Both the position numbers and the translations under genes were made by a program. Positions 1 to 62,999 of a stretch of 64,000 bases of DNA are shown one piece after another (within the stretch, counting starts at the first letter, position 1; every line of letters begins with the position of its first letter). The notes below the pieces were generated by a model. That model was not told the DNA's origin. It ran no database searches and saw only the letters and a program-made list of their open reading frames with translations. The DNA lies in the NCBI GenBank assembly GCA_044892525.1, contig CM097885.1:8062001-8126000 (forward strand), written 5' to 3'. This DNA comes from Schmidtea polychroa (lineage: Eukaryota).

Positions 1-348
1 TATATATTTTTCAAAATTTTTCTAAGTTAGAACAAAGACGTGTATCCCCCCCCCTGCAAAAATTTTTTATGACTCATACTTTTTCAAAATTTTTCTAAGT
101 TAGAACAAAGACATGTAACTCCTAGCATTAATTTTTATGAAACATTATTATTATTTCAAAATATTACTATTATAATTAATATTATTATTATTGATATTAT
201 TACTATTTAAATTATTATTATTATTAAACATCCTTAGTATTAATAATATTATTTTTTAAAATTATTGAATGACTTTAATATTGCATTTGAATTGCATCTT
301 TCTTTATTAAACTTGCAACTGTATTGCCGCTGTCTTTCTTAATCATAT
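1..348. repeat. Left TIR of element A (partial; 2 copies of the ~75-bp subterminal unit)
   Basis: Reverse complement of 9570-9870 and ~10400-10447. Confidence 0.9.
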
Positions 349-505
349 ATTTTTTAAATTTTTTATTATATTTTAAAAACTATATTTAACTTGCAACAGG
401 TGCTGCTATCTTGTATATTATTTGTCGATTTTTGATATAAAATTAATATAGTTACTTTGTTTTATTTTTAAAATAAATTTACAAAAAATAATTAACTAAA
501 ATTTA

Positions 506-851
506 TTAATTAACACATTCGCAATCGTCATCTTTACATTTCATAACCTTTTCGATGGGATGATCTATACAATCATTTTTAATATTTTCCAGATCTTTAG
601 CTTCATCTATAGGCTCATCAATTTCTTGGGTGTCATTAGTTTCTTAACTATCATCGGTTTCTTCAACTTCCTGATCATCAATTCCAGAATCTTGACTCTC
701 TGATTTATTTAATATGCTAGAAACATTTAATATGTCATCGATTTTTACACCACTTATTTCTGATAGTTTTTCCAAGAAAAAGATGATTATATATTTAAAT
801 AATAAATATTTCGAAAATTAATTAATCATATTAACCTTTTTCTACAGTCAT
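506..851 (-). pseudogene. Degenerate inverted paralog of the small acidic spliced gene at 7688-8040
   Basis: Translates MTVEK...SQDSG...DDDCECVN*. It has an in-frame TAA at ~645 and the splice acceptor AG is lost. Confidence 0.75.
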
Positions 852-59600: not shown

Positions 59601-60472
59601 TGAATCTTCGTCTTTGTACAACTGCCGGTAAATTAGTTAAATATTCGTCAAAACCGACTTTTAAAAAATCTATTAAAATAGCAGATAATTTAATTGCAGC
59701 ACTATTGAATTCCGATTCTATATGTTTAGATAGACCGAGTTACATTGGTCAATCTGTACTTGATCTATCTAAACTTAGAATGTATGAATTGCAATATAAG
59801 GATCTGGAATCATTTCGCAATGAGTTTAATTGTAAAATTAATATCGTTGCAGGTGATACAGATTCTTTTTTCCTCGAAGTCATTAACTGCAAACTTGAGG
59901 TTCTTTTACCTGCAATGGTTCGAGATAATTTATTGGATACTTCCAATTACAATAGTTGTCATTCCTTATATAGTAAGAACCTTGATTCAGTCATTGGAAA
60001 GTTCAAAGACGAGAATAAAGGTCTTAAATATAAGGAGTGGGTTTTTCTTAGACCTAAATGTTATAGCTTGTTGGGTGATGAGGAAACAAAAAAGGCTAAA
60101 GGTGTAACATTGAAAGGTGGTGACATAAAACATCAGTCATACCTGGATTGTTATAACACTAACCAGATTTTTTCGGTTCCTCAGACTAAAATAACAAGCA
60201 AAAATCATCAAATTTTTACAATTAAAAACACAAAAATAGCACTAACTAACAAAGATGACAAAAGGGTTTGGGTGGGGCAAAATACTAGTCTTGCATATGG
60301 GCATGTAAGATTAAGTGAATTAAATATTGGAGAAAATGTTGGAGAAATTGTTGCAGAAAATGTTTCAGAAAATGGTGGAGAAAATGATGGAGAAGATGAG
60401 GAAGAATTAAATGAAGATTTTGGAGAAGATGACATCGATATCGATGACGTTATTTTGTCCGATGAGGACTAA
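56669..60472 (+). CDS. polB: Protein-primed family B DNA polymerase, second copy, 1267 aa
   Basis: Same motifs; one extra 8-aa VESHDGLV repeat and 5 visible amino-acid substitutions versus the left copy. Confidence 0.95.
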   Translation: MCFKICPVCKTSDPVTYSVFYNKHKNHLDRFNFKKDSVFKRPSTIEKNNKNKKIKLDTSSFESQVGLPFVESNDGLVVESHDGLVVESHDGLVVESQVGLDNISLDSWDGLNIIQIGGNVPIIQKDLRGTHQILSLNTSNLNIKEIIFPEQLIKKLRDIINELGSVKIQFGITIEFEKDGEIKVNNISNYAKPLTASFFDEGIKELNEKITNITELGSSWNIKNITEIHFTITKISRLSRLSGRSFIETPTYLKNKYCLINIKNTDDSCFLYSILAILKYDEVSSYARNRTSSYNLSELIYNPLDLPMKLKDIRKFEAKNPGLIINVFSYDNNKQLIDNYVLKHPHLDIIHRSKVLNETVINLLLLNKGNNFHYVAISNLNKLMNCHINTSCPTRIRSLWCHRCLNGFNNKHALEKHEILCKRNQLGTTLYTFPQNKLLQFTDWSKTVTPPFVVYADFEAILPSDNDHFQRHMPISAGLLLVNNFDGSKSYQQFIGLDCVESFLSAIEDIALNKVLPFYYKMSRKPMMKLTKIEQRQFVSASVCYLCMKSIVDPVRDHDHFTGKYLGAACSTCNVNRKINKILPIVFHNLKGYDMHHILKYGLNKFKNWNLGCIPITTEKFISLIAHLGKISLRFIDSYQFVNDSLAKAVKTLNSLPFTNSAFSGTIVSEKGIFPYNFATSLDILQTTYELPPIWEGVTELEYEKAQEIWVETNCVTLLDYMMIYLKLDCFLLADFFHQFRLKSIAHNRLEPLNYFGIPGMSWSSALMSLNEPIELITENEMFSFYEGGIRGGLTFVNKHYVKTDENTELLYIDINNLYGWALSQSLPCGEFCWVLDGFDKIMDECRNLNLESLSYGYTLEVDLVIPSELHDKLDDFPVAAEKMKPAGSKVEKLLLTHLPKSNYVIHWRLLKLYLELGVKVTRVNRGVRFKQSPIFKKYIDTNTELRSKSVNSLDKNYYKLLNNSLYGKTVENLKRRMNLRLCTTAGKLVKYSSKPTFKKSIKIADNLIAALLNSDSICLDRPSYIGQSVLDLSKLRMYELQYKDLESFRNEFNCKINIVAGDTDSFFLEVINCKLEVLLPAMVRDNLLDTSNYNSCHSLYSKNLDSVIGKFKDENKGLKYKEWVFLRPKCYSLLGDEETKKAKGVTLKGGDIKHQSYLDCYNTNQIFSVPQTKITSKNHQIFTIKNTKIALTNKDDKRVWVGQNTSLAYGHVRLSELNIGENVGEIVAENVSENGGENDGEDEEELNEDFGEDDIDIDDVILSDED

Positions 60473-62999
60473 TTTTATTGAATAAATTTTATATCTTTAC
60501 ATTTGTTATTTGGTAAATTTTTATGTTTGTTATGTGTCTAGTTCATTTTTATGTGTTTAGTTAATGTTTATATGTTTTGTTATGTGTCTAGTTATTTTTA
60601 TGTGTTTAGTTAATTTTTTATGTGTTGTATAGTATTTGGTTGATATATTATTAATATTATTTTTATTATTATTATTATTATTATTATTATTATTATTATT
60701 ATTATTATTTCATAAAAATTTTCATTAAAAATTATCTTAAAAATTATTCTATTAAAATTTCCATTAAAAATTACCATTGAAAATTATTCATAAAAATTTC
60801 TATTAAAAATTACTTAAAAAATAATTCATTAAAATTTCCATTAAAAAATTTCAATTCTCAAACACCTTCTATTTTTGTTAATAAATTTAAAAATCTTACT
60901 TTAATTTACTTATTACATTACTTTAATTTACTTATTTAAAAATTATTACTTTAATTTACTTATTTAACTTTAATTTAAATTTTTTTTTACCATTGATTAT
61001 TTAATTTTAAAATTTGGACCTTAATTAACTTTAATTTAATTTTTAGAACCATAATTTACTTTAATTTTAAAATTTTTGACCATTATTTACTGTAATTTAA
61101 TTTTTAGAACCATTATTTACTGTAATTTAAAATATTTGGACCATTATTTACTTTAATTTAATTTTTTAGAACCATTATTTACTTTAATTTAAAAATTTGG
61201 ATCATAATTTACTTTAATTTAAATTTTTGGACTGTAATTCAAAAATTTTGACCATAATTTACTTTAATTTAATTTTTAAGAACCATAATTTACTTTAATT
61301 TAATTTTTAAGAACCATAATTTACTTTAATTTAAAAATTTGGACCATAATTTACTGTAATTTAATTTTTTTAGAACCATTATTTACTTTAATTGAAAAAT
61401 CTTAGCCCATAATTTACTTATTTAGACCATAATTTACTTTATTTCAAAAATAAATCTGAACCTTGATTTACTTAAATTTTTAGACCCATCATTTACTTTA
61501 TTTTTAAATTTTAGACCCATAATTTACTTTATTTTAAAAATTTACTATGCGTTTTTTAATGTAAACCACCTTTTCTATTGAAATTCTCATGACCAAGAAG
61601 ATCCCCTCACTATAGTGTGAAAAATCCATGCTTTTTTATTGAAGACTACCTTTTTCTATTGAAATTCTCAGGACCAAGGAGACCCACCCAAATAATATTT
61701 ATCCTTGGCTTGTTTATTGAAAAAAAAAAAAAAAAAAAATTTGTATTTAAAATCCCAGAAAACATTGGGCATTACGGCAACAATTATGTAATCAAAAAAT
61801 GTCTACGGAAAAAGTTATGCAATCAAAAGTTTGCAACATTTTTTACCCCCCCCCCCCCCCCCCCCCTATTGCTGCCGCGGGCCACTAACTCCCTACTCTC
61901 GCCCTTAGTCGAACCTATCTTGTCGGGATCAACAAAGAAAGCGAACTCCCAGACGACCTCAATCAAGAGTGTGTCTTCCACGATAGTTAATCATGTCGTC
62001 GAATCTACCCTCTCTGCTCCAAAGAAGCTTAAGCGTACTTCTTCAGCGGAAAAGAATCAAAAGCGTCAAGACACCATTGCGGCATTAGAAGCTTCCATAT
62101 TTGCTGCTCAAACCTCCAATAATATGATTCCCCAACCAAATGTGCCCGTAGGAACGGAAATTTATCGTCTCGTTCCTGCTGTAGAAACCAGAATAAATGG
62201 AAGACGCTCGGCTCCAGGTTGATATCGACGCCCTAATAGCCGAGGGTGAAGTGTTTTGACGATTTTTCGACATCTGATTCGTGAAAAGATTTTCTAATCC
62301 ACTCGAACATTTCTCCGGATATCCTGTGTAATAAACGAACTTGTTGTATTGAGTTAAGTCTGGTTTTGTATAACAATTATACTGTGCGACCTTATCTTAT
62401 TAGTTTTTACTGTACGTCTTTTTGATTTTCTGTTAAGCATCATGTTTGAAATCAATCGCCTGAAGTTTTTCGTTACTAAAGTCGTCCTCTTGGACCAGGG
62501 TCGTACTGATTGAATAAATGAACAGGATAAGTCATTCCATGGCACCATTGAACCTGTACCGAGATTCTGCCAGGAGTAGTTCTACCATAGGAGCTCACCT
62601 GCTGGTAGACTCCAACCCATGTGCGCATTTCTAACGTGTTACATCACCACGGGCACACATGAGGGAGATGATATGCAAGTCATACTGGTTGCTTAGGGAA
62701 CACTCTGAGTACGCAAAAAATTTGTTTTTCCCCTAAGTAACCAACACTAGTGAATGTTGCTAATGTTAAATATATGTATAGTTTTCAGTTAAAATTGAAC
62801 TTCATTTCTAAAACTGTTAATAGTGTGACGAATCTTGAGTGGGACGTCTACCGGTGCAAGTTTCCTATTCAAATTAAACCTTTATTGTCCATAAACAAAA
62901 AGGATTTTGACAACTACGCTTCAAGAAAAACCGTTAATAAATTTATTGATGTTTAAGCAGATTAAGAAATGGACGTCAAAAATAATATTTAAGAACTTG

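Follow-up and report, generated by a model that had tools for sequence, protein, structure and literature searches.

Two reduced Polinton derivatives in one planarian genome window: probably separate insertions rather than halves of a split element

We analyzed a stretch of 64,000 nt from the 781-Mb genome of the planarian Schmidtea polychroa, which has four large chromosomes. The stretch, referred to here as the window (assembly GCA_044892525.1, contig CM097885.1, denoted C1, C1:8062001-8126000; 29.7% GC), contains two reduced derivatives of Polinton/Maverick transposons, namely element A, which has integrase and virion genes and no polymerase gene, and element B, which encodes only a protein-primed DNA polymerase. 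With a probability of about 0.6, we regard them as two separate insertions of one broad Polinton/Maverick lineage, with A being a decayed copy of a small lineage and B a young polymerase unit with a duplicated end, and not as the two halves of one system. The data suggest that both resulted from the same kind of event, in which one end was copied in inverted orientation over the rest of the element, and that this happened from opposite ends, in different lineages, and at different times, which is why A and B look complementary. A preliminary description of the window had read them as possible segments of a split Polinton.

Results

A complete Polinton family carries the gene block of A

A complete element, termed F, is located at C1:347406-362624. 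It is 15,219 bp long, is flanked by the duplication AATATT, and has inverted ends of about 707 nt, both of which begin identically with AGTAGGGTATTGTG... F encodes a polymerase (PF03175, E 1.3e-27) and an A32-type ATPase of 213 amino acids (aa; E 3.2e-8) that is positioned head-to-head with the gene of a TATA-binding protein (TBP), and furthermore a protease, a capsid frame of 427 aa, a penton frame of 360 aa, two integrase open reading frames (ORFs), the 165-aa ORF165, and three small ORFs. Polymerase and integrase occur together only in F, not in A nor in B. From protease to ORF165, A and F are 93.7% (3759 nt) and 96.0% (1092 nt) identical at the nucleotide level. The preliminary description had itself named complete elements as evidence against a split system, and for A, F is such an element, carrying the A block at 94-96% identity together with polymerase and ATPase. 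From TBP onward, the identity is 69-79%. A lacks F 1-6743, which comprises the end and the polymerase gene, and has an inverted copy of its own right end in this place, with A 644-1173 aligning in inverted orientation to F 14413-13909. It also lacks F 11483-12121, the ATPase block. The TBP of A is only 62% identical to that of F at the amino acid level, while the neighboring genes are 94-96% identical at the nucleotide level, which makes A a mosaic of two lineages.

The left junction of A between the inverted arm and the protease gene (window 700-1100) was fully matched at six other places among 40 scored, with 88-98% identity. A-type ends number only 22 in the genome. The ATPase-less junction (window 5600-6000) was complete at only one of 40 scored places, which is the window itself, and the matches at the other 39 places stop at query positions 226-233. 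In the closest sibling, A2 at C2:154346551, a segment of 640 nt aligns to the ATPase region of F, followed by A's own TBP at 95.6%. As the junction is unique to the window among the scored places and the sibling possesses the ATPase region, the ATPase loss is private to this copy of A. A further segment for the ATPase, as had been suggested, is not required, since the gene is kept by the sibling and by F. Polymerase loss is a feature of the A lineage and ATPase loss a feature of this copy alone, and A is best described as a decayed copy of a small, older, polymerase-less lineage.

Exact 23-nt F-type ends occur 654 times in the genome (control pattern 0). Among the first 100 listed F-type ends, many form facing pairs at distances of 15.2-15.9 kb and others at distances of 9.7-14 kb. 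Twelve facing pairs among these first 100 on C1 are just 270-680 bp apart and look like miniature derivatives of a Polinton family. Perfect 6-bp duplications flank 20 of 21 F pairs, with a miniature pair as the sole miss. The F polymerase is present at no fewer than 38 places with 98-99% aa identity, and at least five of 38 scored places lie 1.7-2.0 kb from a listed capsid-gene match. The capsid gene itself is found at at least 104 places with 97-98% identity. The share of complete elements among the capsid-bearing copies is a lower bound, derived from junction and end-pattern searches. The F copy at C1:347406-362624 interrupts subterminal repeats that belong to an older, B-like element with its end at C1:346919, and F was therefore active after the arrival of that B-like copy.

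On C2, an A32-type ATPase gene was examined that is separated by 11 kb from a copy of the capsid gene; it was rejected, as it belongs to a different Polinton family (C2:101942000-101961999), whose protease is 31% identical to that of A and whose polymerase is 28% identical to that of B. This family adjoins a long terminal repeat (LTR) retrotransposon with an integrase that is 38% identical to the A integrase.

Genes and ends of element A

A has a total length of 10,818 bp, with its left end 178 nt before the window and its right end at 10640. In minus-strand reading, the right end begins with AGTAGGTGGATGTGAGCCCGC..., its AGTAGG being located at 10635-10640. The flanks TTATTG and TTAATG match at five of six bases.

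The gene content assigned to A in the preliminary description was confirmed by Pfam or Foldseek with respect to integrase, major capsid protein, penton, and protease (Table 1), whereas the supposed core proteins had no Pfam match to any family. The stated lack of polymerase and ATPase was also correct, since the Pfam scan of the A proteins found neither in the window copy. An AlphaFold2 model of the A capsid protein, with a predicted local distance difference test score (pLDDT) of 90.2, matched in Foldseek the double jelly-roll capsids of the iridovirus SGIV, PBCV-1, mavirus, and Sputnik (E 6.5e-18 to about 1e-13). With 399 aa, its open frame is shorter than that of most listed copies (426-427 aa). 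A frameshift of a single base disrupts the penton gene, which requires two frames in the window, whereas F has a single 360-aa frame. The intact F homologue was modelled with a pLDDT of 89.9, and the top Foldseek matches of this model were the mavirus penton (E 3.4e-8) and the adenovirus penton base. The morphogenesis module of A has capsid and protease, a frameshifted penton, and an ATPase that is deleted here and kept in the sibling and in F.

The rve match of the integrase (E 1.5e-7, 32.0 bits) was just below the cut-off of 32.6, and rve_3 and Chromo were matched as well. A disruption of this gene by an (ATT)n tract was considered and dismissed, as the tract appears to sit inside a GT..AG intron at 4604-4841 that consists mostly of (ATT)n; the predicted splice joins ...TDLG to KEF... 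In the right arm, ORF108 is located at 7714-8040, and an ORF on the minus strand at 8320-8649 gave a weak match to the Bcl-2 family that was below the cut-off (E 0.02, 15.9 bits).

Element B is a palindrome with two polymerase genes

Element B is a near-perfect palindrome with arms of about 6.25 kb that differ by 13 mismatches in 6269 aligned nt, and both of its polymerase genes are intact and read outward. The two attributes previously given to B, a polymerase as the only gene product and a 6-bp duplication, hold true (PF03175; CTCGCC), but the palindrome with its second polymerase gene had been overlooked. PF03175 was missed in a Pfam scan of the full-length polymerase and was found when the C-terminal half was scanned (E 1.5e-31). 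A weak match to Endonuclease_7 (E 0.002) was below the cut-off. The B polymerase is 60% identical to the F polymerase over 971 aa, and an arm of B aligns colinearly to that end of F which holds the polymerase gene. B contains no integrase ORF or match, and no match to any other F or A protein. In the center, there are only short repetitive ORFs without a Pfam match. The length of the center varies among B copies, and the longer centers of two other copies contain no A or F genes.

Repeats of about 240 nt, 'AAATGACCTTGAAAA' motifs, and an end-like AGTAGGGGCCATCCCGGCC were seen in the region of the B center (54654-55675). For B, the listing gave no RNA data set. In contigs from runs presumed to be RNA, the word depth over the B center exceeded that over the polymerase gene by a factor of 10-100, and some contigs exited the center into sequence resembling A-type ends. 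The contigs of four such runs were fragmentary and had no clean joints. Open frames cross both ends of B into the flanks (48277-48543, minus strand; 61593-62222, plus strand), which are GC-richer than the window average, and B may have been inserted into another repeat or gene.

B belongs to a young and abundant family

The B polymerase is listed at 37 places with 99-100% identity, 35 of which have no stop. All 15 polymerase pairs among these places are divergent (-/+) and 2.5-5 kb apart. The pattern AGTAGGNAGTTAGNNGCCCGC of the B-type ends was found 976 times genome-wide and its control pattern not once. Among the first 100 listed ends, 21 correspond to the exact variant of B and nine to a variant that differs by one base and is likewise found at the ends of B copies. 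Ten complete B pairs are present in the first 63.9 Mb of C1, from which we extrapolate to about 100-150 B copies in the genome. Of 22 B pairs, 21 lie between 6-bp duplications without a mismatch (3/3, 9/10, and 9/9 in three samples). As these duplications are distinct from place to place, they speak against a spread of B copies by segmental duplication.

B copies differ from each other by 0.16-0.49%, with one gappy outlier pair (2.2%) left out, and the arm-to-arm divergence within elements is 0.08-0.24%. From the comparison of these values, it follows that the palindrome was inherited and not made anew at each site, and that the arms diverged since insertion. A polymerase frame of 1265-1273 aa is kept in eight of nine B arms. 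In comparison to 94%-identical relatives, the ratio of nonsynonymous to synonymous substitution rates (dN/dS) was 0.21, 0.28, 0.19, and 0.50 in four fragments. Young B copies, compared in four disjoint pairs, showed 16 nonsynonymous versus 10 synonymous differences, with a neutral expectation of about 4:1 (P 0.024). These are signs of purifying selection on the B polymerase. That the gene is retained under constraint suggests a role of its product in the copying of B, perhaps also in that of gene-less palindromes. Taken together, B is a young, abundant, and recurrent polymerase-only family that transposes as a unit. The preliminary idea of a separately circulating replication module was thus justified with respect to B as a recurrent unit with duplications at 21 of 22 pairs, but not with respect to A as its partner segment.

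The ends of the families are related

The ends of A, B, F, and a solo relic in the window all begin with AGTAGG, as had been noted before for A, B, and the relic end at 35590, and all have a GC-rich box near positions 15-23. The resemblance of the A and B ends had been thought to stop after about 6 nt. In an ungapped comparison of positions 7-30, however, the A and B ends match at 12 of 24 positions, which was reached by a fraction of 0.0135 of shuffles. The corresponding values are 15/24 for A and the relic (0.0003), 14/24 for A and F (0.0003), and 12/24 for B and F (0.012). A and F have further similarity up to about position 45. The relic matches B 200-701 at 69-74% and shares 20 of the 24 positions with B. 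The family ends are related well beyond 6 nt, and their cross-recognition by an integrase is plausible rather than proven.

Two other variants of the B-type end were followed to whole elements; both of these, with lengths of 16.6 kb and 14.7 kb, are palindromes without genes. In the listed C1 stretch with 24 B-type end pairs, none of 22 capsid-gene matches and none of six F-polymerase matches was located inside these pairs.

Positions of features and other parts of the window

The features of A, B, and the relic are compiled in Table 1. Outside these, a host exon encoding a MENTAL domain is present at 19465-20199 (plus strand, E 6.5e-34), and an ORF of 591 aa without family match at 23318-25093 (plus strand). 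A 43%-GC island at 30001-32000 contains two ORFs of about 160 aa each, without matches, and a tandem array of about 1.9 kb with a 61-nt unit at 42501-44359 has no match to B, A, or F.

Table 1. Features of elements A and B and of the relic end in the window.
Feature	Position	Strand	Description
Element A	1..10640		Polymerase-less Polinton derivative (window part); ends, flanks, and gene content compared with family F
A left inverted arm	1..937		Window part; inverted copy of the right end, extends into the ORF108 region
Protease	982..1293	-	Adenain-type cysteine protease; PF00770 (Peptidase_C5), E 1.1e-6, 28.9 bits
Major capsid protein	1394..2593	-	Double jelly roll; AlphaFold2 model and Foldseek
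120-aa ORF	2611..2973	-	Called 'core protein' in the preliminary description; no Pfam match; 94% aa identity in F
Penton (minor capsid) gene	2966..4047	-	Frameshifted; fold of the intact F homologue
Integrase	3978..5304	-	rve integrase with C-terminal chromodomain, two exons; rve, rve_3, and Chromo matches
ORF165	5291..5788	-	165-aa ORF; 94% aa identity in F; no Pfam match
Deletion junction	5817..5833		Private deletion of about 640 nt, A32-type ATPase gene lost; F 11483-12121 absent
TBP homologue	5865..6329	+	Short; PF00352, E 1.6e-15
A right inverted arm	7602..10640		Holds ORF108, weak Bcl-2-like ORF, (ATT)n tract, and 77-nt subterminal repeats
Relic end	34850..35590	-	Solo end, remnant of a B-type element; AGTAGG end at 35590
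Target-site duplication, left	48443..48448		CTCGCC
Element B	48449..61897		Palindromic polymerase-only Polinton derivative, 13,449 bp
B left arm	48449..54697		End; subterminal repeats over about 1.4 kb; polymerase gene with an upstream region of about 1 kb
B polymerase gene 1	49872..53651	-	1259 aa from first ATG, 1265 aa stop-to-stop
B center	54698..55622		925 nt, unique, internally repetitive, no recognizable gene
B right arm	55623..61897		Inverted copy of the left arm
B polymerase gene 2	56669..60472	+	1267 aa from first ATG, 1273 aa stop-to-stop
Target-site duplication, right	61898..61903		CTCGCC

Discussion

Origin of A and B

The A lineage would have started from a complete F-like Polinton, in which the end with the polymerase gene gave way to a copy of the other end in inverted orientation. 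This lineage retained the virion genes, the integrase, and the ATPase, the latter as in the sibling, and would have relied on the polymerase of a complete element. In the window copy, the ATPase gene was later lost, and the penton gene is frameshifted. B is the mirror image of this case in a different and much younger lineage: the polymerase end of a Polinton is present twice, head-to-head, so that the unit has a polymerase gene next to each of its two ends and a short center between them. Both architectures could have arisen by strand switching or panhandle repair in the course of protein-primed replication, a type of origin that is taken from adenovirus biology. As B has no integrase and is nevertheless flanked by 6-bp duplications, its integration must be supplied in trans, and a complete Polinton is a more likely integrase partner of B than A. 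The rve integrase of such an element in the same genome would cut and join the AGTAGG ends of B. The retention of the polymerase in B may be explained by protein-primed replication that starts at the end type of B itself, and gene-less palindromes with B-type ends may be copied by this polymerase as well.

One can extend this to the whole clade with B-type ends, in which polymerase-only palindromes would serve as replication-competent masters of about 490 elements, mostly gene-less palindromes, whose ends are primed only by the B polymerase, with integrase and perhaps capsids being borrowed from complete Polintons of another lineage. We propose such a split economy only tentatively and consider it less probable than not. 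If it were true, B would be a polymerase-carrying Polinton satellite and the smallest natural self-replicating Polinton unit, consisting of two ends and a polymerase.

Alternative explanations

In the split-Polinton model, A and B would be co-adapted parts of a bipartite or multipartite element that complement each other, and the ATPase would reside on a third part. In favor of this model, the gene contents of A and B are complementary, their ends share AGTAGG and half of the next 24 positions, and B makes 6-bp duplications without an integrase. Nevertheless, we regard the model as very unlikely. Complete elements hold the module of A together with polymerase and ATPase, the ATPase loss of A is private to the window copy, and the penton gene of this copy is broken. 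A-type ends are found 22 times and B-type ends 976 times, A copies are 88-98% identical and B copies only 0.1-0.5% diverged, the flank hexamers of A are AT-rich like those of F, whereas those of the B subfamily in the window are GC-rich, and the B polymerase is just 60% identical to the one that travels with the module of A. A multipartite genome should have no one-piece form and should consist of segments of equal abundance and age, but here we have the complete F, 22 versus 976 ends, and differing ages. The opposite view, that B is inert fold-back debris whose polymerase is a passenger kept by youth, with all functions, including that of the polymerase, coming in trans from complete Polintons, as they have to for the gene-less palindromes, has more in its favor, although we still consider it improbable. 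Gene-less palindromes with B-type ends do reach 14.7-16.6 kb, and B copies with a divergence of 0.1-0.5% are so young that intact frames prove little. However, eight of nine arms are intact, dN/dS against the 94%-identical relatives is 0.19-0.50, and there is a deficit of nonsynonymous differences even among the young copies (16:10 where 4:1 is expected, P 0.024).

B could in principle also integrate by itself, without any integrase, if the target were cut by extra domains of its polymerase, which has an Endonuclease VII-like HNH insert as well as N-terminal zinc-finger and cysteine-protease-like regions. The weak, below-cut-off Endonuclease_7 match and the GC-rich duplications of one B subfamily, which are unlike those of F, would fit this idea. 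As the same insert is present in the polymerase of F, which also encodes an integrase, and as the 6-bp duplication and the AG...CT ends are the same as in the integrase-bearing F, we think that there is little chance of self-integration; we know of no HNH-driven transposition with 6-bp duplications. Finally, near-identical inverted arms of 6 kb are typical of artefacts of assembly or of fold-back in long reads. That the B palindrome is such an artefact is hardly conceivable, since all 15 polymerase pairs, which lie at different places, share this architecture. In addition, all but one of 22 copies have a perfect duplication of their own, the center lengths differ among copies, and the arms can be told apart by 13 mismatches in 6269 nt.

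Several observations weigh against our interpretation of A and B as separate insertions whose missing functions come from complete Polintons. No integrase could be tied to B, and its duplications differ in part from those of F. The F hexamers have a GC content of 28% (n=20), which is that of the genome, and the B hexamers 44% overall (n=21; Mann-Whitney P 0.04 versus F), after 53% for B and 24% for F in an initial smaller sample. When B was split by length, a division that was made post hoc after the data had been seen, the 13.3-13.5-kb subfamily, to which the B copy in the window belongs, had 62% GC (n=8, P 0.003 versus F) and the 14-kb subfamily 32% (n=12, P 0.49). This could reflect a different integrase or a different choice of targets. 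The ends of A and F are similar and not identical (14/24 at positions 7-30), and we therefore infer, rather than observe, that F was the helper of A. Moreover, just six of 45 listed capsid-gene matches on C1 up to 144.4 Mb are inside exact F-type end pairs, and most capsid-bearing copies therefore carry other end variants. The relatives used for dN/dS may not be polymerase-only themselves, and selection may have acted in complete ancestors. Last, recurrent B-type architectures with no full-length parent had been named in the preliminary description as support for a split system, and neither a gene-complete element with B-type ends nor a complete parent carrying the B polymerase was found in a sample of three end variants plus one coordinate cross-check, which is no census.

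Comparison with known systems

A 6-bp duplication and AG ends are reportedly the hallmarks of Polintons that Kapitonov and Jurka named in 2006. F is like a Polinton/Maverick of the animal 'adintovirus' type in having the canonical gene set (protein-primed polymerase, rve integrase, adenain protease, A32/FtsK-type ATPase, and capsid proteins with double and single jelly rolls), inverted ends, and 6-bp duplications, and the gene block of A belongs to this set. The differences are that A has no polymerase, with the window copy also lacking the ATPase, and that B has only the polymerase and is a palindrome. To our knowledge, it has never been shown experimentally that a Polinton is replicated by its own protein-primed polymerase. 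B offers a minimal natural substrate for asking whether the polymerase recognizes its own ends and whether integration is borrowed across lineages.

The canonical set is that given in PMC4028283 and PMC6431247. Reduced Polintons have been described: in some, the genes for capsid, protease, and ATPase have jointly been lost (PMC4028283), and in Caenorhabditis elegans a polymerase with an inverted end and without integrase was reported at 10 loci (10.1101/2024.01.15.575659). These reduced Polintons in print are either capsid-less with an integrase or scattered remnants, whereas B is a young, duplication-flanked, palindromic family of about 100 or more copies. Polintovirus-like insertions in flatworms are noted in one preprint. 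Our literature search, whose scope ended before most subscription journals, Repbase, and bioRxiv supplements, yielded no description of a polymerase-only palindromic Polinton family, and as far as we have searched, this family is an undescribed variant of Polinton biology. In planarian stem cells, Polintons are among the transposons that are actively repressed by PIWI-interacting RNAs (piRNAs) (PMC8532177, PMC10558129), and the A, B, and F families of this planarian genome would be relevant to such repression.

Adenovirus and other protein-primed replicons form defective genomes by inverted duplication ('snap-back' genomes), which have a working origin at both ends. In A and B, too, one end is duplicated in inverted orientation, namely the virion end in A and the polymerase end in B, but snap-back genomes are transient in virus stocks, whereas B is a heritable, integrating, and amplified genomic family. 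No paper on inverted-duplication genomes of protein-primed replicons was found in our literature search. One type of end-duplication event can be the source of both virion-only and polymerase-only derivatives, and an observer who sees the two side by side may take them for the segments of a divided genome. The linear plasmids of mitochondria and cytoplasm have inverted ends and a protein-primed polymerase, are extrachromosomal, usually have an RNA polymerase, and do not make 6-bp duplications. With B they have in common that ends plus a protein-primed polymerase constitute a minimal replicon; B differs in being chromosomal, dispersed, and associated with 6-bp duplications.

The nearest precedent for a split system is the family Bidnaviridae, whose polymerase is of Polinton origin. 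In these viruses, the segments consist of single-stranded DNA and are separately encapsidated, and there is no complete one-piece relative, whereas complete elements are abundant in the planarian genome, and the units A and B differ in age and number. Bombyx mori bidensovirus, which belongs to this family, has a bipartite genome of linear DNA, one segment of which encodes a putative DNA polymerase (PMC3036147, PMC6521256).

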